Shown here: positions 7,526 through 54,846 of the stretch, one piece after another
Layout: every line of letters begins with the position of its first letter
Numbering within the stretch: the first letter of the stretch is position 1
Assembly (NCBI GenBank): GCA_021769295.1
Contig: JAETTD010000011.1
Span: forward strand, 134-64,133
Direction: 5' to 3'
Source: Bacillota bacterium
GTDB lineage: Bacteria; Bacillota; Clostridia; Peptostreptococcales; Anaerovoracaceae
Length of the DNA stretch: 64,000 nt
The notes under the pieces: model-generated
Database searches by the model: none
The model's input: the letters and a program-made list of their open reading frames with translations, nothing else
What the model was told of the DNA's origin: nothing
Made by a program: the position numbers and the translations under genes

Positions 7526-10429
7526 CTATTCTATGGATTTTAACGACTCTGCCATGCTTATTTTATTGAGTTTGCGCCTCATTACAAGGTTGACAATCAT
7601 CGCAAAGACGAAAGTTCCCAGAACTCCCAGAACATAGCTGAGAAGGGTAATGTGGACATCAAAGCTGAGCAAGTCGATTTTGATTTTTTCCATTACGAAT
7701 CTGTGGAGCCAGCAGCCCAGAGGCAGCCCCACAAGGGCTGAAATTGCCGTCAGAGTGATGTTTTCCCTGAATACGTACTGAGCAGTCTCATTCTGATAAA
7801 AGCCGAGAACCTTGATAGTAGCGATTTCTCTGATACGTTCGGTTATGTTTATATTGGTCAGATTATATAGGACTATGAACGCCAAGGCTCCGGCACACAG
7901 AACTACCAGCGCGATTACATAGTCAAGGCTTTTCATCATGTTGGTGATGCGGGCCTTGAAATCTTCCGTAACAGATACGGAGGAAACACTTTCGGCATCC
8001 ATTAAAGCGGCGCCGATTTCGTGGCGGGAAAGCTCTGCGTCATCTTCCCCGGCTGCCTGTGTACCGAGAATAAAGGCAGTGTTTATTTCGGGAGCGCCCC
8101 AAGCCGAGCGGTAGGTAGCGTCATTTATGTACAGATAGTTATATACGTAATTGTCGCATAAGCCGGTTATTTTTACGGTGAGAGCATTCTGTTCGCTGTC
8201 ATAAACCGTGAGGCTGTCTCCCTTCTTTACTCCGAGAGTATGGGCAAGATTGCTGTTTATAATTCCCTCGCCTTCGCCCGGATATTCAAGCCGGCCGTCG
8301 TCGTTATGAAGGTCGATGAATTTGTCTATAGGATTATCGTCGTCGCAGACTATTAGGTTTACGGATTTTACCTGCCCGCCGGTTCTTGCATCTACTGAGC
8401 CCGAGTATATAAAGAGGCATTGCTCTATGTATTCTTTGTTTTCCTCTGCAAAGGCAGACTGATCCTCCGGCGTAAGGCCGTGGTTAAAGAGAACTTCGTA
8501 ATCCACATGGTATATCTCATCATATTGCATGGACACCACATTTTTAATTGAGTCCCTGATACCCAGACCTGTTATCAAAAGGGCGGTACATCCGCATATG
8601 CCCAGTATCATCATGAAAAATCTTTTCTTGTATCTGAATACGTTTCTGACGGAGACCTTCTGCAGGAATTTCAGGCGATTCCACACAAAGGGAATTTTTT
8701 CAAGGAAAATCCGCTTGCCTGCCGAAGGGGATTTTGGCCTGATAAGCTGGGCAGGAACTTGGGAAAGTTCGTGATAGCAAGCGTACAATGTGGTTCCGAC
8801 AGAGCATATGAGGGCTGCAAGAAGAGCAAAACCGCCCAGAAGCCAGTCAAAGACAAATATAACTTCTGAAAAACCGTACATCATCTTGTACGCCTCCCAG
8901 ATTACCCATGTAAATATATATGTGCCTGCAAAGAATCCGCCGACTCCACCGATGAGAGCGGAACTTGCCGAATAAAATATATATTTGCTCAGTATTTGGT
9001 TCCTGCTGTATCCGAGAGCCTTTAAGACTCCTATCTGGGTACGTTGTTCTTCAATCATGCGGCTCATGGTGGTCATGCATACCAAGGCTGCTACCAAAAA
9101 GAAGAATATAGGAAAAACTTTGGCAATTCCCTCAACTATACCGGTATCGTTATCAAAGCACACATATCCCACATTGGTCTGTCTGTCCAAAACATAATTG
9201 TCAGGATATTCGATGGCGTTTATATCTTTTTTTGCATCTGTCAGCTTTTTTTCGGCATCTGATATCTTTGCCCTGCCGTCCGCAAGCTCTGATTTTGCAT
9301 CGGCTATTTGAGCCATACCGCTGTTTATTTCGGATTGCTTTAAATCAAGCTGCGCCTTTGATTCTTCGAGAGTTTTCCATGCGCTGTCAAACTGCAGGTC
9401 AAGGGCTGATTTTTGGAATAAATATTCTTCCTCCGTAATGGCTCCGGAGCTGTAATATAATTGGAGCTGTCCGTATGCCGCATCTTTTTCTTTCTCATAT
9501 TGCGAAAGGCCGGAGTTGTATTCTGCCAAACCCTCATCCAAAAGCTGTTGACCACGTTTAAGGTCGGACTCGTTGACCGAGATTTCAGACTGAGCTTTTT
9601 GAAGCTGAGCTTTTTTGTCTGCCAGTTCCGATTCTGCATCCGACACCTTTGCATAAGCTTCGTCCACGATTGCATCGTAACGCCTTTGAGCACAGCTTTC
9701 CAATGCGTTTTCAAGAGGTTCTTTGGCATCCTCCGATATTGACTTGTATTGGTCGCTGAAGATAAATGCTTCCTTATCCAGTTTTACGTAAATTTCCGTA
9801 AAAACATCTGAACTGAAACCAGATTGGGGAATCAGCACAAAGGAAGATATGCTTCCGTCTCCTATGGAAGATGAGCCTCTTTCGAAGTTGAGGTACAGGG
9901 GCGAATCAGCCAGACCGGTTAATGTATAGGAATCATAGGTCAGCATATCAAGGGTGTCTTCCTTGTTGGTTGAATCTATTAAGATTTCTTTGCCTATGTC
10001 TTCTTTGGTAAAATACCTGGAATCTCCGAGACACTCATTTCCCCTCTGAGGCATTTTGCCTGCCACAAGATTGGGGGTGTTGATTTTTTCGGAGATTGCC
10101 ATAAACTTTGAAACCACGGCTCCCGCATCATCATCCTTTATGGTTATCAACACATCGGAGGAATAGGAACCTTCGGCAGTCTTTACTCCGTCTGTCGAAT
10201 TTACGGTTTCCACATCGCAATCCTCAAGCCCCAGAGTTGAAATCAGCCGATAGTCATAAAAATTATGTTTATGCAGATATGTATTGCCGGTTTCAAGAAA
10301 TGCCGACTTGCAAACTTTAAGGCCCGAAAAAAAACCCACTCCAAGAGCGACTATGGCAAGAATCGCAAACCACCGGCCAAAGCTTTGACGGATTTCTCTT
10401 ATGGTAGATTTAAACATAACACCTTTCAT
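7526..10429 (-). CDS. ABC transporter permease with duplicated FtsX/MacB-type domains and a large coiled-coil extracytoplasmic domain
   Basis: 967 aa. TM1 is followed by an extracytoplasmic region of about 390 aa with heptad-like segments (AESELADKKAQLQKAQSEI..., AKSELADGRAKISDAEKKLTDAKKDI). Two 4-TM FtsX modules follow. The gene sits 18 nt downstream of its ATPase. Confidence 0.88.
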   Translation of the reverse strand: MKGVMFKSTIREIRQSFGRWFAILAIVALGVGFFSGLKVCKSAFLETGNTYLHKHNFYDYRLISTLGLEDCDVETVNSTDGVKTAEGSYSSDVLITIKDDDAGAVVSKFMAISEKINTPNLVAGKMPQRGNECLGDSRYFTKEDIGKEILIDSTNKEDTLDMLTYDSYTLTGLADSPLYLNFERGSSSIGDGSISSFVLIPQSGFSSDVFTEIYVKLDKEAFIFSDQYKSISEDAKEPLENALESCAQRRYDAIVDEAYAKVSDAESELADKKAQLQKAQSEISVNESDLKRGQQLLDEGLAEYNSGLSQYEKEKDAAYGQLQLYYSSGAITEEEYLFQKSALDLQFDSAWKTLEESKAQLDLKQSEINSGMAQIADAKSELADGRAKISDAEKKLTDAKKDINAIEYPDNYVLDRQTNVGYVCFDNDTGIVEGIAKVFPIFFFLVAALVCMTTMSRMIEEQRTQIGVLKALGYSRNQILSKYIFYSASSALIGGVGGFFAGTYIFTWVIWEAYKMMYGFSEVIFVFDWLLGGFALLAALICSVGTTLYACYHELSQVPAQLIRPKSPSAGKRIFLEKIPFVWNRLKFLQKVSVRNVFRYKKRFFMMILGICGCTALLITGLGIRDSIKNVVSMQYDEIYHVDYEVLFNHGLTPEDQSAFAEENKEYIEQCLFIYSGSVDARTGGQVKSVNLIVCDDDNPIDKFIDLHNDDGRLEYPGEGEGIINSNLAHTLGVKKGDSLTVYDSEQNALTVKITGLCDNYVYNYLYINDATYRSAWGAPEINTAFILGTQAAGEDDAELSRHEIGAALMDAESVSSVSVTEDFKARITNMMKSLDYVIALVVLCAGALAFIVLYNLTNINITERIREIATIKVLGFYQNETAQYVFRENITLTAISALVGLPLGCWLHRFVMEKIKIDLLSFDVHITLLSYVLGVLGTFVFAMIVNLVMRRKLNKISMAESLKSIE

Positions 10430-10447
10430 AATAATACACCTTTCGTT

Positions 10448-11152
10448 TTACCACTCTATCTGTTCTATAGGAGTAGGGTTGTCGTTTGTTTCAACTGAAG
10501 CCACGGCTCCGTTTTTTACGTGTATTATGCGGTCTGCCATAGGTGCTATTGCCTGGTTGTGAGTTATGATTACGACGGTCATTTGAGTCTGGCGCGCCGT
10601 GTCCTGAAGCAGTTTAAGGATAGATTTGCCCGTATTGTAGTCAAGGGCTCCCGTAGGCTCGTCACAAAGCAGCAGTTTCGGATTTTTAGCCAAGGCACGT
10701 GCTATTGCCACTCTTTGCTGCTCTCCTCCCGAAAGCTGGGAAGGAAAGTTGTTAAGGCGGTGAGAAAGACCTACCTTGTCGAGAGCCTCTTTTGAATCCA
10801 TGGGCTCTTTGCATATCTGGGTAGCGAGTGAAACGTTTTCAAGAGCCGTAAGGTTCTGCACCAGATTATAAAACTGAAATACAAAACCTATATCGTATCT
10901 TCTGTAGGTTGTAAGTTCTCTTTGCGTATATTTGGATATTTCCCGGCCGTCAAGCCATACTTTGCCCGAGGTAAGGGTGTCCATGCCGCCGAGTATGTTG
11001 AGCAGCGTGGTCTTTCCCGCACCGGAGGGGCCTACTATAACGCATATTTCACCTTTATAAATTTCAAAATCAGCGTCGGTTAAAGCTTCTATCGAAACCT
11101 CTCCCATTTGATAAACCTTTTTTACATGTTCAAACTTTACAAACGCCTCCAT
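10448..11152 (-). CDS. ABC transporter ATP-binding protein (MacB/LolD-like)
   Basis: Start moved to ATG 11152 (GGAGGCG RBS). Walker [10 protein letters not shown], signature LSGGEQQR, Walker B LLLCDEPT. Confidence 0.92.
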
Positions 11153-11199
11153 GTGAGTCGCCTCCGCACTTCTATATATTTGAAGCAATTATACCACGA

Positions 11200-12318
11200 C
11201 TAAGGCCTTTTTAAAAGCACTAAGCGGTGTTTCCAAGCTGAAAAAACGGTGAAAAAACCGACAACAAGCATGGCGAGAGTTCCTATAACCACAGGGTAGG
11301 ATTCGAAAGCTACATACTCAACGTTTGTCATAAGCAGCAATGATGCAAGGCCCAGCGGAAAGAATATCATTACTCTGCACAGGTTCTGGTGAAAGGCGGC
11401 AGGACCGAGGAGGTAGTAAGTTAATAGGGAACATATTATGGGTGCAGACGTGAGCAGGGCGCCGAACACAAAGCACCCTACGTACGCCATAAAGGTTCCC
11501 GTTTTATAAAAACCTACGCTCATTACCGAAATTTCCGATAAAAACAAGAGCAAAATGCAGCCGCTGTAAATTCCCTTTTTATCCGTAAATAAAGCCACGA
11601 GAGCGGGGCCCAGAACCATTCCCCCATGTATCAAAAGGATACCGGCTTTGTCGTATGAAAGGGAGTAGACAGAGCCTATGGAATACAATACATCCATGTA
11701 CCCTATGCGGCATACTACGGCAACGGAGACGGCAATAAAAAGAAAAAACAGGCATGATTTAACACGACTTTTTCTTGCATGGGAAGAATGGCTCATATTT
11801 TCTTCGAAATTGATTAAAATAGGTTCATCCAAAAATACCATGGAAGAGAAGAGCATCAGAATCACAGAGCATAAAATTGCAACAAAGGGTCTGAAAGCGA
11901 GCAGCAATGCAAATCCGAAACCAAAGAGCACCGATAAAGAGAATACTAAACCGAACACCAGAGTCTTGCTTATGCGGAACCAGCCCACGATTATGTTGGG
12001 AGCGAGGACAAAGAGCAATCCTCCGGCGCTTGCACCAAGGAGTATTGAACCGATATATTCTATAGGCGTATTTTTCCAGTATGCAGAGAGAAACATTGCA
12101 TAATTGGCTACAAGTCCGGTGAAGCACACCCAAAATCTGAAGGACAGGCAATTATAAAAAGAGCGGGCAATGGGTATACCTATAACAGAAGAAAGAAGGA
12201 GCACCGGAAATGTTTCTTCGGAATTGGCTGAAAACACGAATCCCAAAGCCGGAGCGAGTATAAAAAACAGGCCTATGATGTTCTTTGAACCGTAAAAAAA
12301 TTTAAGCAAAGTGAGCAC
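11200..12318 (-). CDS. Polytopic membrane protein (about 10-12 TM, MFS-like topology), function unknown
   Basis: 372-aa hydrophobic ORF, first gene of the apparent operon with the ABC pair. I recognise no diagnostic motif. The start is GTG. Confidence 0.6.
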   Translation of the reverse strand: MLTLLKFFYGSKNIIGLFFILAPALGFVFSANSEETFPVLLLSSVIGIPIARSFYNCLSFRFWVCFTGLVANYAMFLSAYWKNTPIEYIGSILLGASAGGLLFVLAPNIIVGWFRISKTLVFGLVFSLSVLFGFGFALLLAFRPFVAILCSVILMLFSSMVFLDEPILINFEENMSHSSHARKSRVKSCLFFLFIAVSVAVVCRIGYMDVLYSIGSVYSLSYDKAGILLIHGGMVLGPALVALFTDKKGIYSGCILLLFLSEISVMSVGFYKTGTFMAYVGCFVFGALLTSAPIICSLLTYYLLGPAAFHQNLCRVMIFFPLGLASLLLMTNVEYVAFESYPVVIGTLAMLVVGFFTVFSAWKHRLVLLKRP

Positions 12319-12436: not shown

Positions 12437-12664
12437 ATGAAGGAATTCTTGGAGGAAAAACTGCATATAGTCCACGACGGCATTCTGCATGTAAATGAGG
12501 TTATAGCTTTTGCTCTCGTAACAGTGATCGTAATCCTTCTGATAGTTGTGATAAAGGATTTGGTTAGGCTTGCCGAGAACAAGGTGCAGAAACGCAAAAA
12601 GACCATATTCAGTCATCGCAGGAACAGGTACAAAAACCGCATAGGAAAGAAAAACAAGTTTTAA
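12437..12664 (+). CDS. Small single-TM protein with a basic C-terminal tail
   Basis: 75-aa ORF with its own promoter and terminator. TM segment VIAFALVTVIVILLIVVI, then a K/R-rich tail. I recognise no homology. Confidence 0.5.
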   Translation: MKEFLEEKLHIVHDGILHVNEVIAFALVTVIVILLIVVIKDLVRLAENKVQKRKKTIFSHRRNRYKNRIGKKNKF

Positions 12665-12677
12665 AACGGTATGTAAT

Positions 12678-12700
12678 CCCCGCATTATGCGGGGTTTTTT
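12678..12700 (+). terminator. Rho-independent terminator
   Basis: CCCCGCA (12678-12684) / TGCGGGG (12688-12694) with a 3-nt loop and TTTTTT at 12695-12700. Confidence 0.85.
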
Positions 12701-12715
12701 ATTGCCTTAATCAGA

Positions 12716-13777
12716 CTAAAAGCTGATTCCGTTGGTGTCGCAGCATTGGCATGTTATACCCTGTGAAACCGAAGATCTCACTTCGCCGCAGCAGCAGTTG
12801 TCTCTGTCTTCAAAACAATCGGCATGGTCAGGATTGCAAGGGTTGCACTGACCTACGTCGTCACACGGAATTTCAACCTCACGGGCATTCAGTCTGAACA
12901 GCGACGGTCTTGTCACCTGAAGATTTACCTTAGGAGTCACCACCAGAGAACCTGTGAGAGTGAGCATGCAGTTGTTGTTTGAGCAAGTTACGGACAGATT
13001 AGGGTTGAGTATTGCAGCACAGGCGTCAAAATCAAACAGCAGTGAAGGCGCTACGCCTGCAACCTGACATGGAATTTCAACGCCGCAGAATGCAAAGGCT
13101 GCTCCGCCTGCTATTGTGAAAGGCGAACCTTCTGTCGTTCTGAAGCATACTCTGAATTGACATGCAGTGCCGTTGTCAAAGACGGTACCTTCAAGGACTA
13201 TGGTGGCGTCGAGCTGCCAAGGTCCGTCGGGAGAAATGAGCACGAAATTTCCCGGGCAAGGATTTTCGCAAGGCGACTTGCAAGGGCACTTGGTTATTTC
13301 GGACATTATGCCGCTCAGGTCTCCCAGATACTGATTTCCGCTTCTTGCAATGTCTGTAATTGCCATTCCGTCTACCGTAACTCTGCTTGCCGGCAAAGAA
13401 GCCGCCGGAGCTATGTCAAAGGAGTGAACGATTACAAAGGCATTGGTGATATTGAAGGTGGAGTTCTGAGAAAGTCCCACGTTGCAGCAACAGCCGCAGT
13501 TCTGTGACTGGCGGGTGTTTCCGCATCCGCATCCGTTTCCGCAGTTGCAGTTACAATCGCATCCGCAGTTGCAGTCACACTGACGGCACCTGTCGTGCTC
13601 GGCGTTTTCGCATACGTTATCGCCGATGCTCAGTTCCTGTGAGAAATTATTCTGATTTGCGGTAATGGTAGCAAGTATGGGAGAAGCGGTTTCCTGATTA
13701 TTGTAAAAAATCTTGGTCAGATAAACGAGATTTTCGTCGTGGTTTGTACATTCGCAATTGTTTTGTGAAAAATTCAT
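12716..13777 (-). CDS. Cysteine-rich protein of unknown function (38 Cys in 353 aa, with a (CxC)n tract)
   Basis: Long uninterrupted ORF with an AGAGAGGA RBS about 8 nt before the ATG. No signal peptide or TM helix. Contains CRQCDCNCGCDCNCNCGNGCGCGN and NCGCCCN, C-terminal CNPCNPDHADC...NCCCGE...CQCCD, and a beta-rich central region. Confidence 0.7.
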   Translation of the reverse strand: MNFSQNNCECTNHDENLVYLTKIFYNNQETASPILATITANQNNFSQELSIGDNVCENAEHDRCRQCDCNCGCDCNCNCGNGCGCGNTRQSQNCGCCCNVGLSQNSTFNITNAFVIVHSFDIAPAASLPASRVTVDGMAITDIARSGNQYLGDLSGIMSEITKCPCKSPCENPCPGNFVLISPDGPWQLDATIVLEGTVFDNGTACQFRVCFRTTEGSPFTIAGGAAFAFCGVEIPCQVAGVAPSLLFDFDACAAILNPNLSVTCSNNNCMLTLTGSLVVTPKVNLQVTRPSLFRLNAREVEIPCDDVGQCNPCNPDHADCFEDRDNCCCGEVRSSVSQGITCQCCDTNGISF

Positions 13778-13872
13778 ATTCTAAAATCCTCTCTTTAAAT
13801 AAATTGGGATAATACAATATATGCTTTCCTTATTTTGGTGGTGAAATAATCTTAAAAAATCCCTAAAAACTA

Positions 13873-13905
13873 TTGATAAGTGTTAAAAAGTGGTGTATAG
13901 TGGTG
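13873..13905 (+). promoter_or_regulatory. dcw (mraZ) promoter overlapped by phased GTGKTR direct repeats (candidate MraZ operator)
   Basis: TTGATA (13873-13878), 17-nt spacer, TATAGT (13896-13901). GTGTTA, GTGGTG and GTGGTG start at 13880, 13890 and 13900, i.e. exact 10-nt phasing. Confidence 0.6.
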
Positions 13906-13960: not shown

Positions 13961-14392
13961 ATGTTCATGGGAACTACTTACAATTCCATAGATGAAAAGA
14001 ACAGAATGATCGTTCCTGCAAAGCTGAGAGCAGGGCTCGGCAACCGCTGCATTCTGACAAAGGGCCTCGACCGCTGCCTGTACATTTACACGGCAAAGGA
14101 CTGGGAGACTCAAATGGAAAAAATATCAAAGCTTCCCGAGTCAGACCCTAAAGTCAGAGCGTTCATAAGACATTTCTGTGCCAACGCCGTAGAGTGTGAA
14201 TTCGACAAACAGGGAAGAATCGTAATTCCGCCGGTGCTTAAAGGATATGCCGGAATTGAAAAAGAACTGGTAACCATGGGCGCCATGTCCAAGATTGAGG
14301 TCTGGAGCAAAGACGTGTGGGATTCGCCTGATAACGAAAACAAAATGGAAACAGAAGATTTTGCCAACGCACTGGCAGAATACAATTTCTGA
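13961..14392 (+). CDS. mraZ: Transcriptional regulator MraZ
   Basis: 143 aa. Starts MFMGTT and has two SpoVT/AbrB-like DxxxR repeats (DEKNRMIVPAKLR, DKQGRIVIPPVLK). Confidence 0.93.
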   Translation: MFMGTTYNSIDEKNRMIVPAKLRAGLGNRCILTKGLDRCLYIYTAKDWETQMEKISKLPESDPKVRAFIRHFCANAVECEFDKQGRIVIPPVLKGYAGIEKELVTMGAMSKIEVWSKDVWDSPDNENKMETEDFANALAEYNF

Positions 14393-15966: not shown

Positions 15967-17949
15967 ATGAAACATACACCTGTAAAGGTAATTAACAAAA
16001 AAAGGATAGCCATAGGGTTCATAGTCATAGCAGTTCTTATGATTTTGCTTGCTTTCAGAGTTGCATGGATTCAGATAGTGGATGCAGACGAACTAACGGA
16101 AAAAGCCATAGGACAGCAGACCAGCGACATCCCTATAAAAGCCAAAAGAGGAGTAATATACGACAGAAACGGCAAGGAACTGGCCACAAGCGTGACGTGT
16201 TATTCCGTATGGGTCAGACCGGCGGAACTTGCCGAGAACAAAACCGATGATGAAATAGCTCAGGTCGCACAGGATTTGGCTCCCATAGTCGGCATGGAAC
16301 CTGATGAGGTAAAAACCAAACTGGTAAAGGAACAGGCCCTTGTTAAGATTGCCCAGTATCTTGAAAAGGAAACGGCAGATCAAATCAGAGAACTTAACAT
16401 ACCGGGCATATCCCTGTCGGAAGACACAAAAAGGTACTATCCTCTCGGCAACTTTGCCTCCCAGCTTCTCGGAAGCGTTACGGTAGACAATACCGGAAGG
16501 ACGGGAATAGAACTTGAATATGACCAATACTTAGGAGGAATAGCCGGAAGGTGGGTAAAAAATACCGACGTTACCGGCAATGAGCTTGTAGACGGCTCGG
16601 AAGAATATTTTGAGGCACAGGACGGACTTAATGTGGTATTGACCATAGACGAGGCCATACAGTATTATGCAGAGAAAGCATTGGAAGAAGGCATGGAAAA
16701 GACCGATGCGGACAGAATAATGTGCCTCATTATGGACCCTCAGACCGGAGAGATTCTTGCGAGCGCCATAACTCCCGGATTTGACCCCAACAATGCAACG
16801 GAACCTTGCGATGAAAAGGAAAGAGAAGCTTTTGAGGAACTTGAGGAAGAGGACCAGATGAGCTATCTTTTCAAGATGTGGAGAAATCCAATAGTCAGCG
16901 ATACTTATGAGCCGGGTTCGACCTTTAAGCTCATTACGGCGTCTTCCGCTTTGGAAGAAAAGGTCATTTCGCCTACGGATACCTTTACATGCGATACTAA
17001 AGTTACGGTGGCCGGTGTAACACTTCATTGCTGGAGCACCAGGGACCATGGAACTCAGACCATAAAAGAGGCTCTCGGAAATTCGTGCAACCCGGCTCTG
17101 GCAAAGGTTGCCGGAAAAATGGGTGCTACGACGTTTTATAAATATATAGAGCTTTACGGAATCACAGAAAAAACGGGAGTGGATTATCCGGGAGAAACCA
17201 GCTCGATAATGTATAACCTTGAGGATGTGGGCCCTGTTGAGCTTGCGACAATGGGATACGGACAGAGTATTTCCCTTACTCCGATACAGCTCTTGACTGC
17301 CGTATGTGCCATAGGCAACGGAGGAGACCTGCTGCAGCCGAGATACGTAAAAGCTCTTACGGATTCCGACGGAAAAGTGGTAGAGCAGTTTAAGACCAAG
17401 GTAGTGAGAAAAGTAATTTCGGAAGATACCGCAGCAGAAATGCGTGAGGCCATGGAATATGTAGTGGCCGAGGGCGGAGGCGGAAACGCCAAGATACCCG
17501 GCATGAGAATAGGAGGCAAGACAGGAACCGCAAACAAAGTCGAAGGCGGAAAGTACGGCGATTATTATTACAGTTCCTTCTTGGGTATGGCTCCCATGGA
17601 TGACCCTAAGGTTGCCATATTGGTAATCGTAGACAGTCCTAAGGGTTCATACTACGGTTCCCTTACGGCGGCTCCGATAGCCAAGAGCATATTGGAAGAC
17701 ACTCTGAGGTACCTGAACATTGATCCTCAGTATACGGATGAAGAAAAGGCTGCTATTGAAGGTAACTACACCATAGTGCCTGACGTAACAGGCAAAGAAT
17801 ACAGCGAGGCTGCCGGCATAATAGCGGGCTGCGAGCTTGGATACAGCAAACCTGAGGGAGCGGGCGATGAGTTTATCGTGGCGGCCCAGTATCCTGCGGC
17901 AGGAACAAAAGTTAAACGAGGCTCAAACGTATATGTATACAACCAATAA
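15967..17949 (+). CDS. Class B penicillin-binding protein (FtsI/PBP2B/SpoVD family) with a C-terminal PASTA domain
   Basis: 660 aa. Motifs SxxK (GSTFK), SxN (NSCN) and KTG (GGKTGTA). The C-terminal ~60 aa resemble a PASTA domain (VPDVTGKEYSEA...). Confidence 0.92.
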   Translation: MKHTPVKVINKKRIAIGFIVIAVLMILLAFRVAWIQIVDADELTEKAIGQQTSDIPIKAKRGVIYDRNGKELATSVTCYSVWVRPAELAENKTDDEIAQVAQDLAPIVGMEPDEVKTKLVKEQALVKIAQYLEKETADQIRELNIPGISLSEDTKRYYPLGNFASQLLGSVTVDNTGRTGIELEYDQYLGGIAGRWVKNTDVTGNELVDGSEEYFEAQDGLNVVLTIDEAIQYYAEKALEEGMEKTDADRIMCLIMDPQTGEILASAITPGFDPNNATEPCDEKEREAFEELEEEDQMSYLFKMWRNPIVSDTYEPGSTFKLITASSALEEKVISPTDTFTCDTKVTVAGVTLHCWSTRDHGTQTIKEALGNSCNPALAKVAGKMGATTFYKYIELYGITEKTGVDYPGETSSIMYNLEDVGPVELATMGYGQSISLTPIQLLTAVCAIGNGGDLLQPRYVKALTDSDGKVVEQFKTKVVRKVISEDTAAEMREAMEYVVAEGGGGNAKIPGMRIGGKTGTANKVEGGKYGDYYYSSFLGMAPMDDPKVAILVIVDSPKGSYYGSLTAAPIAKSILEDTLRYLNIDPQYTDEEKAAIEGNYTIVPDVTGKEYSEAAGIIAGCELGYSKPEGAGDEFIVAAQYPAAGTKVKRGSNVYVYNQ

Positions 17950-23291: not shown

Positions 23292-24458
23292 ATGAGAAAA
23301 GCCAAAAAAGCAAAAACTGAATCGGAGAAGAGCAAGAAAAGATTCCGGCTTAAGCTGCCTAAAGAGGGCAGGAGCGGGGACCTGTGGCTGGTATTGCTGA
23401 CGGTGATTCTGACGGTTTTCGGAACGGTTATGATTTTCAGCGCAAGCTATTACAAGTCTATCAGCGAAGCCGGCGACCCCTATGTATACCTTAAAAGACA
23501 GGCAATATGGGTCATCGCCGGATTTATAGGCATGTGGATTCTGTCAAAGATAGATTATCACATATGGGGCAGGCTGTATAAAGTAATACCCGTAGTGTGC
23601 GTAGTGCTTTTAGCTCTGCTGTTTACTCCCCTTGGACGTGAGGCGGGAGGCGCCGTAAGATGGATTGCCATAGGACCTATCACCATAATGCCGGGCGAAA
23701 TCGCAAAGCTGGGTCTGATAATCTTTGTGGCCGGTTATTTTGACAGGTATTCCAAGCGAGCCGGAGATTTTTGGCGAGGTGTGGTTCCCGTAGTTGCGCT
23801 CGCAGCGGTATATGCGGGACTGATAATGAAACAGCCCAATATGTCTACGGCATTTACCGTGGTGTTTATAGCAGGCGGAATGCTTTTGGTAGCGGGAGTC
23901 AAATGGAGGCATCTCGGAATTCTGGCAGGAGCTGCTGGAGTTGCAGGCGTAGGATTGATTTTCATGGATTCTGAAGGATACAGATTCGCCAGATTTACCA
24001 GCTTCCTTGACCCTTTTGCAGATGCGCTGGGAAACGGATGGCAGGTGGTTCAATCACTTCTGGCCATGGGAACCGGCGGCCTTACGGGTCTTGGACTCGG
24101 CAACAGCATACAGAAGAATCTGTATCTGCCTGAGCCTCAAAACGATTTTATCCTGGCAATAATCGGAGAAGAACTGGGATTTATCGGAATACTGGGACTG
24201 ATGATAGTCTACATGGTGCTCATCTGGAGAGGCTGCCATGTTGCAATAAATGCTGCCGACTATATGGGAATGATGATGGCTGCGGGCATAACCATAATGA
24301 TAGGAATTCAGGTGGTTATGAATATAGCCGTAGTAACATCGTCCTTCCCTCCTACAGGTATCATCCTTCCTTTCGTAAGTTACGGAGGAAACGCATTGTT
24401 GATATTTATGGGAGCTATGGGAGTACTGCTTAATATTTCAAAATCTTCTGACTTATAG
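23292..24458 (+). CDS. ftsW: SEDS-family peptidoglycan glycosyltransferase FtsW/SpoVE
   Basis: 388 aa and about 10 TM. The position in the dcw cluster and the LPFVSYGG motif support the call. Confidence 0.9.
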   Translation: MRKAKKAKTESEKSKKRFRLKLPKEGRSGDLWLVLLTVILTVFGTVMIFSASYYKSISEAGDPYVYLKRQAIWVIAGFIGMWILSKIDYHIWGRLYKVIPVVCVVLLALLFTPLGREAGGAVRWIAIGPITIMPGEIAKLGLIIFVAGYFDRYSKRAGDFWRGVVPVVALAAVYAGLIMKQPNMSTAFTVVFIAGGMLLVAGVKWRHLGILAGAAGVAGVGLIFMDSEGYRFARFTSFLDPFADALGNGWQVVQSLLAMGTGGLTGLGLGNSIQKNLYLPEPQNDFILAIIGEELGFIGILGLMIVYMVLIWRGCHVAINAADYMGMMMAAGITIMIGIQVVMNIAVVTSSFPPTGIILPFVSYGGNALLIFMGAMGVLLNISKSSDL

Positions 24459-28104: not shown

Positions 28105-29259
28105 ATGCTACAGATTGAGACAGAAATGGAAAAAGCGGCAGTCATTAAGGTAATCGGCGTTGGCGGCGGCGGATGCAATGCGGTGAACCGCATGGTGGAA
28201 GCAGGCCTGCAGGGAGTCGAGTTTATTGCCGTTAATACAGATAGACAAGCCTTAAACAGGTGTTTGGCAGAGACCAAAATTCAGATAGGAGAAAAGCTGA
28301 CCAGAGGACTGGGCGCAGGAGCCAATCCCGAGGTGGGCCAGAGAGCGGCAGAAGAAACTTTGGATGAGATAACCGGCATAATGGACGGGGCAGATATGAT
28401 TTTCGTTACCGCAGGTATGGGAGGCGGAACAGGAACAGGAGCTGCGCCTATTATCGCCAAAGCCGCAAGAGATATGGGAATACTCACGGTAGGCGTCGTT
28501 ACAAAACCTTTCTCTTTTGAAGGAGCCAAGAGAAGAAAACAGGCTGAGCTGGGTATCAGCTTCTTAAAGAGATATGTGGATTCTCTCGTAGTGGTACCTA
28601 ACGATAAATTGCTTCAGAATTGCGAAAGAAACACCTCCATGCTGGATGCTTTCCGCATGGCCGACGACGTTTTGAGACAGGGCGTTCAGGGAATTTCGGA
28701 TTTGATTTCCGACTTCGCTTTGATCAATGTGGACTTTGCGGATGTTAAGTCGGTAATGACGGACAGAGGCATTGCACACATGGGAACAGGAAAAGGAACA
28801 GGCGAAAAGAGAGCGGAAAGCGCTGTCAAATCTGCCATCGAGAGTCCGCTTCTCGAAACTACCATTGCGGGAGCAAAGGCTATTCTCCTCTATGTTTCCG
28901 GCGGATACGACCTGGGAATGCTTGAAGTCAGCGAAATCGCAGGTATGGTTGAGGAACAGGCAGACAGAGACTGCATCCTGATATTCGGAGCTGCCGTAAA
29001 CGAAGATATGGATGACGAAATCGCAATTACGGTTATCGCAACCGGATTTGACGAAGGACTGGAGAAAGAAGAAGCGGAGGCTGCCCCTTCGGTAGGTCTT
29101 GAAAAGAAGAAACCCGACGTTCAGGAACCTGCAAAATCGGAAGAAGTGATATTTGGCGAAGTTGAAGGATTGAGCGGAACCGAGCGTACATTGCAGGATA
29201 TACTCAGCAGTGAAGAAGGCGGCACATCAAAGTTCGAGATTCCGGATTTTCTAAAATAG
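28105..29259 (+). CDS. ftsZ: Cell division GTPase FtsZ
   Basis: 384 aa. Tubulin signature [10 protein letters not shown] and [26 protein letters not shown]. Confidence 0.98.
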
Positions 29260-38699: not shown

Positions 38700-39572
38700 A
38701 TGCGTTATGTCGGCGATATTTACAGACCGCCAAGCGAAGCTTACAGCTTGCTTGTTCAGGTTACCATAGGATGTTCTCACAACAAATGCACGTTTTGCAA
38801 TATGTTCAAGGAAAAACAGTTTAAAGTAAGAAAGCCGGAAGAAGTTCTTGAAGATTTGGCATGGGCAAGAAGCCATTATTCGAGAGTTGAAAAAATATTT
38901 CTCTGTGACGGCGATGCCTTGTGCCTTGCAAATCACAAACTTATAAGGATTCTCGACTATATAAGAGAACATTTTCCTGAATGCAAGCGTGTGACCACCT
39001 ACGGAAGAGCTACGGACGCATTGCGCAAAACTCCGGAAGAACTGCGTGAACTGAGGGAGCACGGCATGACCATGGTATATTTGGGAGCCGAATCGGGAAG
39101 CCAAAAAGTCCTTGAAATGGTCAATAAAGGCGAAACAAGAGAAGAACTTATCGAAGGAGTAAAGATGCTTGAAGCGGCAGGCATCCAAGCGTCTGTAACC
39201 TTTATAAGCGGTCTTGCAGGACCGGACCTGTGGGAGGAACATGCCGTGGAGACAGGCAAGATGATTGCCGAAATGAATGCATCATATGTGAGCCTTTTGA
39301 CACTTATGTTGCAACCCCCTGCGCCGCTGCTTGAGGACTACAGGTCAGGCAAGTTTAAGCTGCTTTCTCCGGAAGAAGTTCTGGCTGAAACCTGCCTCAT
39401 GCTCAAATATGCCAGACCTTCGAAACCGTGCGTATTCAGAAGCAATCACGCTTCCAACTACGTTTCGCTGCGGGGAAATCTGCCGATAGACAATGAAAAT
39501 ATGATAAAATCACTGAAGAGATGTATGGAAGACCGAGGTCTGCTAAAAGACGAAAGATTCAGGATGTTATAA
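38700..39572 (+). CDS. Radical SAM protein, function unknown
   Basis: 290 aa with IYRPPSEAYSLLVQVTIGCSHNKCTFC (CX4CX2C-like cluster motif). Confidence 0.85.
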   Translation: MRYVGDIYRPPSEAYSLLVQVTIGCSHNKCTFCNMFKEKQFKVRKPEEVLEDLAWARSHYSRVEKIFLCDGDALCLANHKLIRILDYIREHFPECKRVTTYGRATDALRKTPEELRELREHGMTMVYLGAESGSQKVLEMVNKGETREELIEGVKMLEAAGIQASVTFISGLAGPDLWEEHAVETGKMIAEMNASYVSLLTLMLQPPAPLLEDYRSGKFKLLSPEEVLAETCLMLKYARPSKPCVFRSNHASNYVSLRGNLPIDNENMIKSLKRCMEDRGLLKDERFRML

Positions 39573-39582
39573 GATTTGTAAA

Positions 39583-41082
39583 ATGAAAATTTTATTGACT
39601 ACGCTAAATTCTCAATATGTACATTCCAACCCTGCCCTCAAGTATCTTTATACCGTTGCGGCAGACACCGATAACGACGTAAGCATACGTGAGTTTACTA
39701 TCAACAATGAGGCTTCGTATATATACGGCGAACTTGTAAGAGCAAACTATGACATGGTTTGCTTTTCTTGCTACATTTGGAATATTGAAGAAATTAAGGC
39801 CATAGCTTCCGACTTGAAAAAGGCAAGACCGGGCATAAGGATATGCCTGGGCGGACCGGAAGTGAGCTTTGAAGGCCATATATTTGCCCTTGAAAATCCG
39901 TGGGTTGATTTTATATTGTGCGGAGAGGGAGAATACTCCTTTTACAGGCTGCTTGAGGTGCTGAAGGAAGACGGGCAGGCTCTGAACACCGTGCCGGGGC
40001 TCATATATCGTATGGAGGAAAAAATATATGTAAATCCCCAAATGGAGCCTTTGGACTTTAATACCGTTCCCTTTTTGTATTCGGTGCTCGAATGCGAAAG
40101 CGACAAGGTGGTCTATTACGAATCTTCAAGAGGGTGTCCTTTCAGGTGTTCTTATTGCCTCTCCTCCATAGAGAAAAGGGTAAGAGCCCTCGACGTGGAC
40201 AGGGTGAAAAATAACCTCAGATATTTTCTCTATAAAAATGTAATGCAGGTTAAATTTATCGACAGAACCTTTAACTACGACGAAGGCAGAGCTTATGAGA
40301 TATTTAAGTATCTGATAGAAAACGATAACGGTCATGCTAACTTTCACTTTGAAATATGTGCTGACCTGCTGACGGATAAAACCCTCGATTTGCTTGCAAA
40401 AGCAAGGAAAGGCCTGTTTCAGTTTGAAATAGGTATTCAGTCCGCAAACCCCGAAACGTTAAGGGCGATAAACCGTAAAGAAAATATCTATCCCATATTG
40501 TATAATGTAAAAAAGCTTTTGAGTTTGGGAAATATACATATACATGTAGACCTTATAGCAGGGCTTCCCTATGAGACTTATGAAATCTTTGCCAGGTCTT
40601 TCAACAAGGTTTACGCCCTCGGAGCAGACGCCTTTCAGATGGGATTTTTAAAGGTCCTCAAAGGTACGCCTATAGCCGCCGAGAGCAGAAAATACGGCAT
40701 CATATGGAGAGATAAAGCGCCTTACGAAATAATTTCAAACGACTGGATAAGCGCAGAGGATATGGTAAGGCTCAAAGAAATTGAGAAGATGCTGGGCATA
40801 TATTACAATCGCGGCGGATTTGAAAAGACTTTGCCTTATCTGATGAATGAGCTTGATGCAAAGCCCTTTGAGCTGTTTGAGATGATAGCGGAGTTCTATT
40901 ACGAAGGCGGCTACCAGCATAAAAACCGGAAAAAGGAAGAACAATACAGAATACTCAGAAAGTTTGCCATGAAAGCCGGCATACGTGAAGAAGAGGCGGA
41001 GAAAGTTTTAACGGAAGATTTGGAAAATACTTTTAACGCCGAAGAAGTAAAGCGATTTTTGAAAAAGGGATGGGAGATATAA
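39583..41082 (+). CDS. B12-binding-domain radical SAM protein (DUF4080-type C-terminus)
   Basis: 499 aa. The N-terminal MKILLTTLNSQYVHSNPALKYLY is the class B B12-binding fold. Cluster motif SRGCPFRCSYC. The C-terminal extension is typical of DUF4080 (from memory). Confidence 0.82.
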   Translation: MKILLTTLNSQYVHSNPALKYLYTVAADTDNDVSIREFTINNEASYIYGELVRANYDMVCFSCYIWNIEEIKAIASDLKKARPGIRICLGGPEVSFEGHIFALENPWVDFILCGEGEYSFYRLLEVLKEDGQALNTVPGLIYRMEEKIYVNPQMEPLDFNTVPFLYSVLECESDKVVYYESSRGCPFRCSYCLSSIEKRVRALDVDRVKNNLRYFLYKNVMQVKFIDRTFNYDEGRAYEIFKYLIENDNGHANFHFEICADLLTDKTLDLLAKARKGLFQFEIGIQSANPETLRAINRKENIYPILYNVKKLLSLGNIHIHVDLIAGLPYETYEIFARSFNKVYALGADAFQMGFLKVLKGTPIAAESRKYGIIWRDKAPYEIISNDWISAEDMVRLKEIEKMLGIYYNRGGFEKTLPYLMNELDAKPFELFEMIAEFYYEGGYQHKNRKKEEQYRILRKFAMKAGIREEEAEKVLTEDLENTFNAEEVKRFLKKGWEI

Positions 41083-41083
41083 T

Positions 41084-42100
41084 ATGGATATGATAAACAG
41101 AGAGGACAGAATCAGCGAATATCTGATTCCGCATTTGAACAACTATATATTTGACGAACTATCTGAAAATTATCTTAAAAAGGCAGGAATCGCAGACATA
41201 ATGACAGGTGTGCCGGTTCCCATAGACAAAAAAGAGTTGGAGAGCATATCCACCTTGTCCATAGCACGAAACATGGCTATGGTAATAGGATGCGACCCCA
41301 AATTCCAATACAGAGAAAATTATGTCGCATATATACTCAGAACTTTTGACAAGAGGTTTGCGCAAGGGTTGATTGCGGAAGGAGTGGAAGCGGCTCAGAA
41401 AAACGATTACGATTATGCATGCATTCAATTCAGAGCAGCTATGGTTATAGACCCCGAAAGCGTAGATGCGGTTTACTGTTACGGCCGTGCCTGCAAAGAT
41501 GCATATGAGCTTGGTGAGGAGGAAGACTTCATCGCAAGATTTAAGGCGGAATCCATAGAATCCTTTGAAGAGGTGACCCTGAGAAGACCCGATTTTGCCG
41601 AGGCCTATTATTTTTTGGGATACGGATACATAAATTTAGGATTATATGTAAAAGCTAAATTAACGTGGCAGGATTTTATAAAGCTTTCCGGAGATGAAGA
41701 AAAGAAGAAGGAAATTGAGGAAAGACTGTCCCTGCTTGATGAGCCGGTTGAAATTGAAGAGGGATACAATTTTATCCTTTCGGGCAAATTTCAGGAAGGC
41801 ATCTCAATACTGTCCAAATATACCGAAAGCCGCTTTAAGGACTGGTGGCCGCTGTGGTACTATTTAGGCGTTGCCCATATGGGTCTGGGAATGCCGGAAG
41901 ATGCCATAGATGAGTTTAAAAAAGTGCTGACAATTTCTCCGAGCAATATAGAAACCATGGAGGAACTCATCAAGGCATATGAGGAAACGGGAAACCAAGA
42001 AGCGGTTAAAAAGTACAGAAATAAGATTGCTATAGTAAAGGAAAATATTGAAAAAGACCGTCTTGAAGCCGTGAAAAGTAAAAGTGAAAAATTATCATAA
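41084..42100 (+). CDS. TPR-repeat protein
   Basis: 338 aa with repeated A/Y/G-patterned helical pairs (AEAYYFLGYGYINLGLYVKA, WYYLGVAHMGLGMPEDAIDEF). The start lies 1 nt after the radical SAM stop. Confidence 0.72.
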   Translation: MDMINREDRISEYLIPHLNNYIFDELSENYLKKAGIADIMTGVPVPIDKKELESISTLSIARNMAMVIGCDPKFQYRENYVAYILRTFDKRFAQGLIAEGVEAAQKNDYDYACIQFRAAMVIDPESVDAVYCYGRACKDAYELGEEEDFIARFKAESIESFEEVTLRRPDFAEAYYFLGYGYINLGLYVKAKLTWQDFIKLSGDEEKKKEIEERLSLLDEPVEIEEGYNFILSGKFQEGISILSKYTESRFKDWWPLWYYLGVAHMGLGMPEDAIDEFKKVLTISPSNIETMEELIKAYEETGNQEAVKKYRNKIAIVKENIEKDRLEAVKSKSEKLS

Positions 42101-42167: not shown

Positions 42168-42242
42168 TCCAAGGTAGCTCAATGGTGGAGCACTCGGCTG
42201 TTAACCGATAGGCTGTGGGTTCGAGCCCCACCCTTGGAGCCA
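42168..42242 (+). tRNA. tRNA-Asn (GUU)
   Basis: Acceptor stem TCCAAGG/CCTTGGA, anticodon loop CTGTTAA, T-loop GGTTCGAGCCC, encoded CCA. Confidence 0.9.
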
Positions 42243-42249
42243 TTTTTTT

Positions 42250-42338
42250 GCCGGAGTGGCGGAATTGGCAGACGCACAGGACTTAAAATCCTGCGATCCT
42301 TACCGATCGTACCGGTTCGACCCCGGTCTCCGGCACCA
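42250..42338 (+). tRNA. tRNA-Leu (UAA), class II with long variable arm
   Basis: Acceptor stem GCCGGAG/CTCCGGC, anticodon loop CTTAAAA, long variable arm, T-loop GGTTCGACCCC, encoded CCA. Confidence 0.9.
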
Positions 42339-42404
42339 ACCCTTGGATTGGTTTTTTAGGAGACATATTTAAGGGATGGACCGAATACAATATAATATTG
42401 ATGA

Positions 42405-42480
<76 letters not shown>

Positions 42481-54597: not shown

Positions 54598-54846
54598 TGA
54601 ATATAATGACCGAGGCAAAATCGGAAGCCGGTGTAAATCCGGCACTGTGTCTCAGCAACCGTGATATCTGCGAAAGGATTGGTGTTAAATCACAAGCCAC
54701 TAAAGAAGAATCTTTGGGAAGGCGTCCCGGTAGGGAGAGGATTAAGTCGGTAGACCTTGTTCCGGTCAATTAAGAAAGAATCTTCTGAGATGAGATGATG
54801 TAGATATGTTTATATGTAAGGCACCTCATGGAGAGGTGCTGTTTTT
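54598..54846 (+). promoter_or_regulatory. Cobalamin (B12) riboswitch with a terminator expression platform
   Basis: Conserved core GGAAGCCGGTGTAAATCCGGCACTGT, then AGCCACT...GGGAAGGC. B12-box-like AGTCGGTAGACCTTGT at about 54744. Terminator GCACCTC (54821-54827) / GAGGTGC (54833-54839) followed by TGTTTTT. Confidence 0.85.

Follow-up and report, generated by a model that had tools for sequence, protein, structure and literature searches.

What would an isolated gene for a protein crowded with cysteines be doing back-to-back with mraZ, at the head of a cell division gene cluster? The question is raised by a 64,000-nucleotide (nt) stretch of contig JAETTD010000011.1 (hereafter the window), which comes from an Anaerovoracaceae gut bacterium and encodes, at positions 12716-13777 of the minus strand, a 353-amino-acid (aa) protein with 38 cysteines. 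An initial interpretation, made without database searches (hereafter the sequence-only reading), had suggested a disulfide-crosslinked spore-surface protein or, alternatively, a metallothionein-like metal store. We conclude that the protein is probably a structural component of the spore envelope, in the outer coat or the exosporium, on the grounds of the promoter of its gene, which is the decisive evidence, of its own composition and architecture, of the gene clusters in which a sister subfamily is found, and of the occurrence of sporulation in the family Anaerovoracaceae. The role is thus one that we infer from promoter and context.

The cysteine-rich gene and its promoter

The open reading frame (ORF) begins with ATG and ends with the stop codon at 12716-12718, according to the ORF list and its translation. 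Cysteine makes up 10.76% of the 353 residues (10.8% in the sequence-only reading), compared to a mean of about 2% across the window's 55 longest ORFs; those that come next reach 6.5% and 6.0%, at least one of them being an antisense ORF, and 4.1% is the highest value among ORFs with a family match. The motifs previously quoted from the protein (RCRQCDCNCGCDCNCNCGNGCGCGN, NCGCCCN, KCPCKSPCENPCPG, CQFRVCF, FCGVEIPCQ, CDDVGQCNPCNPDHADC, NCCCGE and CQCCD) are all present in the translation. The N-terminus is hydrophilic and the peak 19-residue Kyte-Doolittle mean (1.66, residues 239-257, AGVAPSLLFDFDACAAILN) falls on a segment that includes three aspartates and forms a beta strand in the model, which bears out the claim that the protein has neither a signal peptide nor a transmembrane helix. 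The gene stands alone and is divergent from mraZ (13961-14392, identified by a PF02381 match), across an intergenic region of 183 bp, and it has its own ribosome-binding site, both as had been proposed; this site, GAGAGG(A), was read from the sequence at 13787-13793 (minus strand), about 10 nt before the ATG, and either AGAGAGG or AATGAGGT is kept at its position across the orthologous loci.

A motif scan located a sigma-K-type promoter at 13816-13843 of the minus strand, with a -35 element CAC (13843-13841), a 17-nt spacer and a -10 element CATATATT (13823-13816), the whole CAC-N17-CATATATT sitting 46 nt ahead of the ATG. The sequence-only reading had placed AC-17-CATATATT at exactly these positions (13842/13841 and 13823-13816) and had called it a weak match to the consensus; the position was exact, but the low rating did not hold, the motif being conserved over 14 lineages whose spacers have diverged. 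The window contains a single match to the strict pattern CAC-N17-CATA[GT]A[ACT]T, on the strand of the gene, with 0.08 matches expected. We then turned to the 50 loci carrying the gene that were returned by a scan of GTDB species genomes. In 34 of these loci (2-21 kb each), the strict pattern was found exactly once, in every case directly upstream of the orthologue and on its strand, and the relaxed form nAC-N17-CATAnAnn was found in 36 of the 40 orthologous loci that could be evaluated. The distance from promoter to ATG was 35-48 nt in most loci and 74-78 nt in five; a further match in locus L023 lies 8 nt ahead of the called ATG, this start codon having probably been mis-chosen.

The position matrix built from the 36 promoters revealed that the -35 element is kept almost without exception (C-20 in 31, A-19 in 34 and C-18 in all 36), that G-1 is present in 28, and that all 36 share the C, A, T, A and A of CATA-A. 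When the spacers were clustered at 60% identity, 14 lineages resulted, and between them the spacers were no more alike than background (identity 0.29), the values for the -10 octamer and the -35 trinucleotide being 0.88 and 0.87. CAC-N17-(G)CATATAnT is thus a phylogenetic footprint. The sigma-K consensus of Clostridioides difficile consists of a -35 AC, a spacer of 16-17 nt and a -10 CATA---TA or CATATAAT (PMC3789822), and CAC-N17-CATATATT agrees with what is expected of a sigma-K promoter in its -35, spacer, -10 and distance from the start codon. In the same species a sigma-K promoter has been mapped for CD1067, which encodes the Cys-rich exosporium protein CdeC (PMC3789822).

Protein family, architecture and sister subfamily

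A homologue search across 5.8 billion proteins retrieved 97 relatives (E 1e-42 to 1e-163, identity 33-72%), nearly all of them full length. The sole names borne by these relatives were of the kind 'hypothetical protein [Firmicutes bacterium]', and none carried a Pfam domain. An exhaustive profile search of 1.84 billion representatives returned only 105 proteins, and the family is therefore narrow. By their record titles, the 50 loci belong mostly to metagenome-assembled genomes (MAGs) of uncultured Firmicutes or Clostridia, several being Anaerovoracaceae or Candidatus Fimisoma, together with CAG:145, CAG:238 and UBA1702, and most were derived from gut or faecal samples; a few bins are labelled Oscillospiraceae, Peptostreptococcaceae, Bacteroides or Absicoccus, labels which were taken unchecked. 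More distant members were found in Anaerovorax sp. IOR16 and in other Anaerovoracaceae or Family XIII MAGs. Since about 100 full-length homologues, nearly all from MAGs of uncultured Anaerovoracaceae, share 16 invariant and some 50 near-invariant alignment columns, this must be a real and conserved coding gene, and the ORF is intact in every locus whose contig spans it. The window protein had no match in Pfam or NCBIfam at E<=10, ten distant homologues had none in Pfam, and a profile search of the PDB sequences gave no match at E<=10. The family is thus narrow, undescribed and structurally unassigned, and of a functional kind that is already known.

The architecture was derived from two alignments, A1 and A2, comprising 44 and 92 members respectively, and from an AlphaFold2 model of the window protein (mean predicted local distance difference test score, pLDDT, 78.9; predicted template modelling score 0.74; 197 residues at pLDDT >= 90). 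Both alignments and the model delimit an N-terminal conserved beta segment at residues 15-52 (13622-13735, minus strand, as for the other parts), of the form NLVYLxKIFYx...SPI...FxQxL (or ...FTQQL), with strands at 16-30, 34-40 and 45-51 and a pLDDT of 95-98 over residues 21-50. It is followed by a hypervariable Cys/Gly/Asn loop (loop 1, residues 56-100, 13478-13612) that contains the (CxC)n tract and was modelled with a pLDDT mostly below 50 (block means 45-63); a weak 6-nt periodicity of the DNA at 13520-13543 lies within its coding part. Residues 105-300 (12878-13465) form a conserved all-beta core, mostly with a pLDDT above 90, which includes a CPCxxxCxxxC knuckle (164-174) and two very long strands (245-266 and 269-296), and whose invariant residues comprise F108, G137, G185, W187, G197, F208, G224, F228, A229, P236, C237, P282, F294 and E300. 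Because the N-terminal segment packs into this core with such a high pLDDT, loop 1 is to be seen as an insertion that splits one domain. The remainder (12719-12865, alignment A2) consists of a variable Cys-rich linker and a conserved end motif, ACQCCDTNGYxF (here TCQCCDTNGISF); in this C-terminal part C305 and D306 are invariant and G309, Q310, C311, Q344, C346, T348, N349, G350 and F353 near-invariant, and residues 328-353 have a pLDDT below 50, the end peptide being modelled as disordered.

Across the 92 homologues, the core measured 194-225 residues and held 6-15 Cys, loop 1 ranged from 12 to 81 residues (4-19 Cys) and loop 2, the C-terminal linker, from 14 to 159 residues (1-37 Cys), resulting in whole proteins of 298-493 residues with 24-71 Cys (6.6-14.4%). 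The Cys loops are therefore expandable low-complexity appendages on a fixed scaffold and not a defined metal site. The sequence-only reading had also raised the prospect of a jellyroll or solenoid core, for which a Foldseek search with the model gave no match: nothing in the PDB reached E<=0.001 (TM about 0.1), the best hits being FadL, Clostridium perfringens enterotoxin, HA70 and tetravirus capsids at probabilities of at most 0.11. No meaningful analogue was found in BFVD either, the single viral match having an E value of 1.7e-4 but a TM of 0.11, and the model of a sister-subfamily member, P0156 (pLDDT 80.8), had no match in the PDB. No SPOCS, CsxA or CdeC entry was among the Foldseek matches listed, their presence in the PDB copy being unchecked.

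The sister subfamily, A3, consists of 18 remote relatives encoded on contigs of 24-30% GC, one of which is labelled Clostridium sp., and its alignment to the window family extends across the entire core (hhalign probability 99.9%, E 2e-33). In A3 proteins the Cys-rich region is N-terminal and the C-terminal tail is lacking. Their genes lie, in four independent contig sets, in clusters with SPOCS-like and DUF11 genes. These clusters encode several paralogues of 157-171 aa with weak to sub-threshold matches to PF12673 (SipL/SPOCS), a 392-aa SPOCS protein, proteins of 399/400 aa that combine two DUF11/CLIPPER domains with a C-terminal SPOCS domain (31 bits), DUF11/CLIPPER giants of 1307-2035 aa that lack signal peptides, and other small proteins in which 8-13% of the residues are Cys; glycosyltransferase and NeuB-type sugar genes are present as well. 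CsxA and CsxC, both rich in Cys and with the SPOCS fold, form the lattices of the exosporium and the parasporal layer (bioRxiv 10.64898/2026.09.03.749163), and in F-ENA anchors DUF4183 and DUF11 are joined to a CsxA-like domain (PMC12357932); the content of the A3 clusters mirrors that of clostridial exosporium and appendage anchor loci. Loci L051, L054, L056 and L057, in which one or two A3 copies are accompanied by tiny proteins of 10-13% Cys and by a truncated integrase-like gene, are putative clusters for an exosporium or for appendages. The sigma-K motif was found ahead of some genes of the A3 clusters, e.g. that of the 2035-aa DUF11 protein in L056, and not ahead of the A3 genes themselves; we made no use of these motifs because they are frequent by chance at 24-30% GC. 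A different, palindrome-containing motif (GAATAA...TATAGATA..TATCTAT) is conserved upstream of the A3 genes.

A proposed spore-envelope role and its alternatives

We propose that sigma-K RNA polymerase would transcribe the monocistronic gene from CAC-N17-CATATATT in the mother cell, late in sporulation. Having no signal peptide, the protein would stay in the mother-cell cytoplasm, fold as an all-beta domain of about 240 residues (15-52 plus 105-300) and assemble around the forespore. The two flexible Cys-rich loops of variable length and the CQCC...NGYxF tail could then reach neighbouring subunits, and intermolecular disulfides would lock the assembly once oxidation became possible, a strategy documented for ExsY/CotY, CsxA and CdeC. 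Sigma-K dependence, location on the spore, self-assembly and disulfide cross-linking are what we infer for the protein on these grounds. It is also conceivable, if rather doubtful, that the family represents a new structural class, in which a split beta domain of about 240 residues without PDB analogue, (CxC)n cross-linking loops and a docking tail would make up the outermost disulfide-locked layer of Anaerovoracaceae spores.

Several observations weigh against a role in the spore envelope. Most cultured Anaerovoracaceae are described as non-spore-forming. No sporulation gene was recognised in the 64-kb window or within 10 kb on either side of the 50 orthologues, and ftsZ (28105-29259) is followed by genes for a SpoU-type methylase, pheS, pheT and zapA and not by spoIIGA-sigE-sigG; the sequence-only reading had been right to raise both of these points for the window. 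The promoter region can also be read as a sigma-70 promoter, TTCACC-18-TATATT, which scores 9/12; CATATAAT includes the sigma-A -10 hexamer TATAAT; and in the most distant orthologues, L059 and L060, the -10 is kept and the -35 AC is shifted or missing. A search of sequencing runs returned no RNA runs carrying the gene sequence and four gut-metagenome DNA runs containing about 18% of its sequence words. Neither sequence nor fold comparisons linked the protein to a proven coat or exosporium family. When compared with an alignment of 12 Peptostreptococcaceae CdeC sequences (PMC7677010 supplement), the window subfamily (A2) reached an hhalign probability of 0.7-1%, even with the loop excised, and the A3 match to CdeC described below dropped to a score of 28.6 and a probability of 10% without the low-complexity N-terminus of CdeC. 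Finally, SpoMAG predicted that most Peptostreptococcales gut MAGs are non-sporulating (PMC12536801).

Two of these objections lose some force. That of a non-sporulating family is weakened by the spores with F-ENA fibres that have been imaged in an uncultivated member of the Anaerovoracaceae (PMC12357932). The sigma-70 reading, in turn, explains the conservation of the promoter less well, because the TT of its putative -35 is poorly kept (18/36 and 24/36) and the invariant C before ATATAAT is irrelevant to sigma-A.

A sigma-K-type promoter informs about timing only, and the protein might therefore be specific to sporulation without being a building block of a coat or lattice: it could be a subunit of an appendage or of its anchor, a morphogenetic organiser, or have some other late mother-cell role, with the Cys loops serving in docking rather than in bulk cross-linking. 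We give this alternative a small but real chance. The giant fibre-like DUF11/CLIPPER proteins and the SPOCS paralogues that adjoin the A3 homologues speak for an appendage or anchor, as does the conserved C-terminal tail, which resembles a docking peptide. The window subfamily, however, has no nearby partner genes, being encoded by a lone gene beside the division and cell wall (dcw) cluster in every locus, and a Cys content of 6.6-14.4% together with expandable loops is typical of bulk cross-linked layers.

It is improbable that the gene is a leftover from sporulation in lineages that have since given it up, either kept for a new role or on its way to being lost. The lack of nearby sporulation genes, the absence of sigE and sigG after ftsZ and the SpoMAG predictions would all fit such a relic, but the ORF, core, start codon, ribosome-binding site and promoter are intact across species whose orthologues are only 33-55% identical, and a decaying gene would not keep a promoter of two exactly spaced elements.

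We consider it highly improbable that the protein is a vegetative cytoplasmic metal or redox buffer, expressed from a housekeeping sigma factor, in which the (CxC)n thiolates would bind Zn, Cu, Cd or Fe much as in a metallothionein. Its Gly/Asn-rich CxC, CC and CxxC arrays do resemble metallothionein motifs, the cytoplasm of a strict anaerobe is reducing, the conserved CPCxxxCxxxC knuckle of the core could bind metal, and the 9/12 score of the sigma-70-like reading would suit a housekeeping promoter. Against this, it is the beta core and the promoter that are conserved while the loops vary in length and in Cys number (for loop 1, the 12-81 residues and 4-19 Cys given above), no metallothionein family was matched at E<=10, and conservation in the promoter falls on CAC and on the C ahead of ATATAAT rather than on a TTG as in a sigma-A -35. 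The metal store suggested by the sequence-only reading is accordingly disfavoured.

The position of the gene bears on the least probable of the alternatives. The cluster opened by mraZ (mraZ, rsmH, ftsL, the gene for a penicillin-binding protein (PBP), murE ... ftsQ, ftsZ) is back-to-back with the Cys-rich gene wherever the flank is long enough. Most loci of the gut clade keep the other flank too, with genes for a 75-aa membrane protein, a 372-aa protein, an ATP-binding cassette (ABC) ATPase and a 967-aa permease, and in one subclade an acyl-acyl carrier protein thioesterase gene directly follows the 75-aa gene. The far flank differs in Anaerovorax sp. IOR16 and in a second distant MAG, and the linkage to mraZ persists in both. 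This linkage is most likely an inherited position beside a very stable cluster. In the Anaerovorax record (L059, JADQTL010000011.1, 8227-9590), an insertion sequence (IS) element with DDE_Tnp_1/DUF772 ORFs lies between mraZ and the orthologue, and murE appears as two split ORFs. In the window, mraZ has a sigma-70-like promoter, TTGATA-17-TATAGT, at 13873-13901 (plus strand), the -10 of which is overlapped by GTGGTG repeats with a 10-bp period (GTGGTGtataGTGGTG, 13890-13905, plus strand) that look like an MraZ operator; about 50 bp away, a third copy, GGTGGTG (13836-13842), runs across the -35 CAC of the sigma-K-type promoter, and CTCCAC/CACCAC repeats occupy the same place in related loci, e.g. 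L060. A function in division or in the envelope, under regulation shared with the dcw cluster, would agree with the divergence from mraZ in all loci with enough flank, distant ones with a changed other flank included, and with the MraZ-box-like GGTGGTG over the CAC and the two further boxes at 13890-13905, but it is very improbable, since the synteny may be plain inheritance (in the gut clade, synteny extends to every flanking gene), CAC alone and not CACCAC is conserved outside one clade, the protein bears no likeness to division proteins, and the gene has been retained in L059 although the IS element parts it from mraZ. We also rejected a spurious ORF because of the sequence conservation, a secreted adhesin because the protein lacks a signal peptide, and an origin from a phage or mobile element because of the stable chromosomal synteny.

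Other features of the window were recorded alongside. The 75-aa ORF (12437-12664, plus strand) is convergent with the Cys-rich gene and encodes a small protein with a single hydrophobic helix and a strongly basic tail, which is 36-67% identical in most related loci and belongs to no family of Pfam or NCBIfam. Between the two genes lies just one terminator-like hairpin, GC-rich and at 12678-12694, with its T-tract on the plus strand in the terminator scan; it is a good intrinsic terminator for the 75-aa gene only, to which the sequence-only reading had also assigned it, and it probably ends the transcript of the Cys-rich gene too. Further along, the minus strand encodes the 372-aa protein (11200-12318), which is a polytopic membrane protein, has no family match and is 26-45% identical in relatives, and downstream of it the ABC ATPase and the unusually long 967-aa FtsX/MacB-type permease (7526-11188). 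The sole class-B PBP of the dcw cluster (15967-17949, plus strand) had SpoVD as its best model (630.6 bits, cutoff 688), and an FtsW-like protein (23292-24458, plus strand) had SpoVE (384.6 bits, cutoff 448.8) while passing the FtsW cutoff; these scores are uninformative as a signal of sporulation. A cobalamin riboswitch (54623-54755, plus strand, 58 bits) is followed by genes for a FecR/DUF4430 protein, an unassigned 298-aa ORF, a duplicated energy-coupling factor (ECF)-type ATPase, an ECF S-component-like protein and another unassigned ORF, a locus that is likely to serve B12-related uptake. An otherwise ORF-poor gap contains a tRNA cluster (Asn-GTT, Leu-TAA and Met-CAT, 42168-42480, plus strand) and is flanked by a trio of radical S-adenosylmethionine (rSAM), B12-rSAM and tetratricopeptide repeat genes (38700-42100) and by indolepyruvate:ferredoxin oxidoreductase genes.

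Comparison with known spore and metal-binding families

Cys-rich self-assembling proteins scaffold spore coats and exosporia, and they determine how resistant and adhesive spores are and how they are transmitted. Those known so far (ExsY/CotY, CsxA/CsxC and CdeC/CdeM) come from a few species of Bacillus and Clostridium in culture and do not resemble one another. A protein of this kind would be no conceptual surprise, but if the spore-envelope role is correct, the principle of crystallising first and locking by disulfides afterwards would extend to another lineage and another fold. The gene with its sigma-K promoter would then be a simple genomic marker of the capacity to sporulate in abundant gut taxa, and the protein would be a candidate for robust self-assembling protein materials. 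On the more doubtful view that the family is a new structural class, the intact promoter in at least 50 uncultured gut species (CAG-145, CAG-238, Fimisoma, UBA1702 and others) would mark them as cryptic spore formers, and the back-to-back position with mraZ and the MraZ-box-like repeat on the -35 element could tie late sporulation to the regulator of the division cluster.

Judged by its sequence, the window protein is not a member of the CotY, Ena, CsxA or metallothionein families. No metallothionein family of Pfam or NCBIfam was matched, and there is no array of fixed stoichiometry, loop length and Cys number varying 4- to 30-fold between orthologues. The suggestion of a spore-surface protein gained from the conserved promoter and from the exosporium-like A3 clusters; the families it had named, CotY/CotZ and DUF3992/Ena, did not stand up in Pfam. 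The Ena subunits resemble the window protein in the proposed use of flexible Cys-bearing termini to cross-link subunits; they are, however, jellyrolls of about 120 aa, and no jellyroll or Ena structure was among the Foldseek matches of the window protein, which in Pfam matched neither DUF3992 nor DUF4183 at E<=10. ExsY, CotY and CotZ (PF10612, Bacillus exosporium and crust) share the proposed strategy, whereby subunits assemble within the cell and disulfides then cross-link them cooperatively. ExsY and CotY are small and differ in fold (bioRxiv 10.64898/2026.09.03.749163), the window protein is about twice their size, and PF10612 was not matched in Pfam at E<=10.

CsxA and CsxC of Clostridium sporogenes and C. 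botulinum are, like the window protein, Cys-rich, beta-rich and devoid of a signal peptide. CsxA has 25 Cys in 299 aa and an internal CGGGCNCGCTC loop (sequence from the PMC4942563 supplement) comparable to that of the window protein, and the A3 homologues adjoin SPOCS-like paralogues, SPOCS being the CsxA/CsxC fold. CsxA and CsxC self-assemble into disulfide-locked lattices, as is proposed for the window protein, whose core of about 240 residues is much larger than a SPOCS domain, with its 78-position model. CsxA gave hhalign probabilities of 2% with A2 and 0.3% with A3, a profile of 13 SPOCS-like paralogues gave 0.15% and 0.5%, and PF12673 was not matched in Pfam at E<=10. As CsxA itself also fails to match the profile of the SPOCS-like paralogues, comparisons of this kind cannot exclude a shared SPOCS fold.

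The exosporium morphogenetic protein CdeC (CD1067) of C. difficile belongs to the same order, Peptostreptococcales, as the window protein. The hhalign comparison of A3 with the CdeC alignment was collinear and reached a score of 44 (probability 72-76% in local and 90.5% in global mode), compared to 21 for reversed sequences and at most 23 for twenty column-shuffled controls, and the matching motifs were ICTYMDVIxDE/AIExNRIFDT and STFVxPEiCLP/FNTLSAPICLP. Since the match is confined to A3 and is weakened without low-complexity sequence, we do not claim membership of the CdeC family; homology to CdeC is possible, though unproven. The Cys-rich region is N-terminal in CdeC and A3 and an internal, domain-splitting loop in the window protein, which lacks the KKNKRR and HHH motifs of CdeC and ends in a CQCCDTNGYxF tail specific to its own family. 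The two proteins (405 aa in CdeC, 353 aa in the window) nevertheless have in common a Cys content of about 9-11%, the absence of a signal peptide, low-complexity Cys repeats (NPC and CCRQGKGK in CdeC; CxC, SPC and NPC in the window protein) and a promoter of the sigma-K type, mapped in the case of CdeC and conserved across the orthologous loci in that of the window gene.

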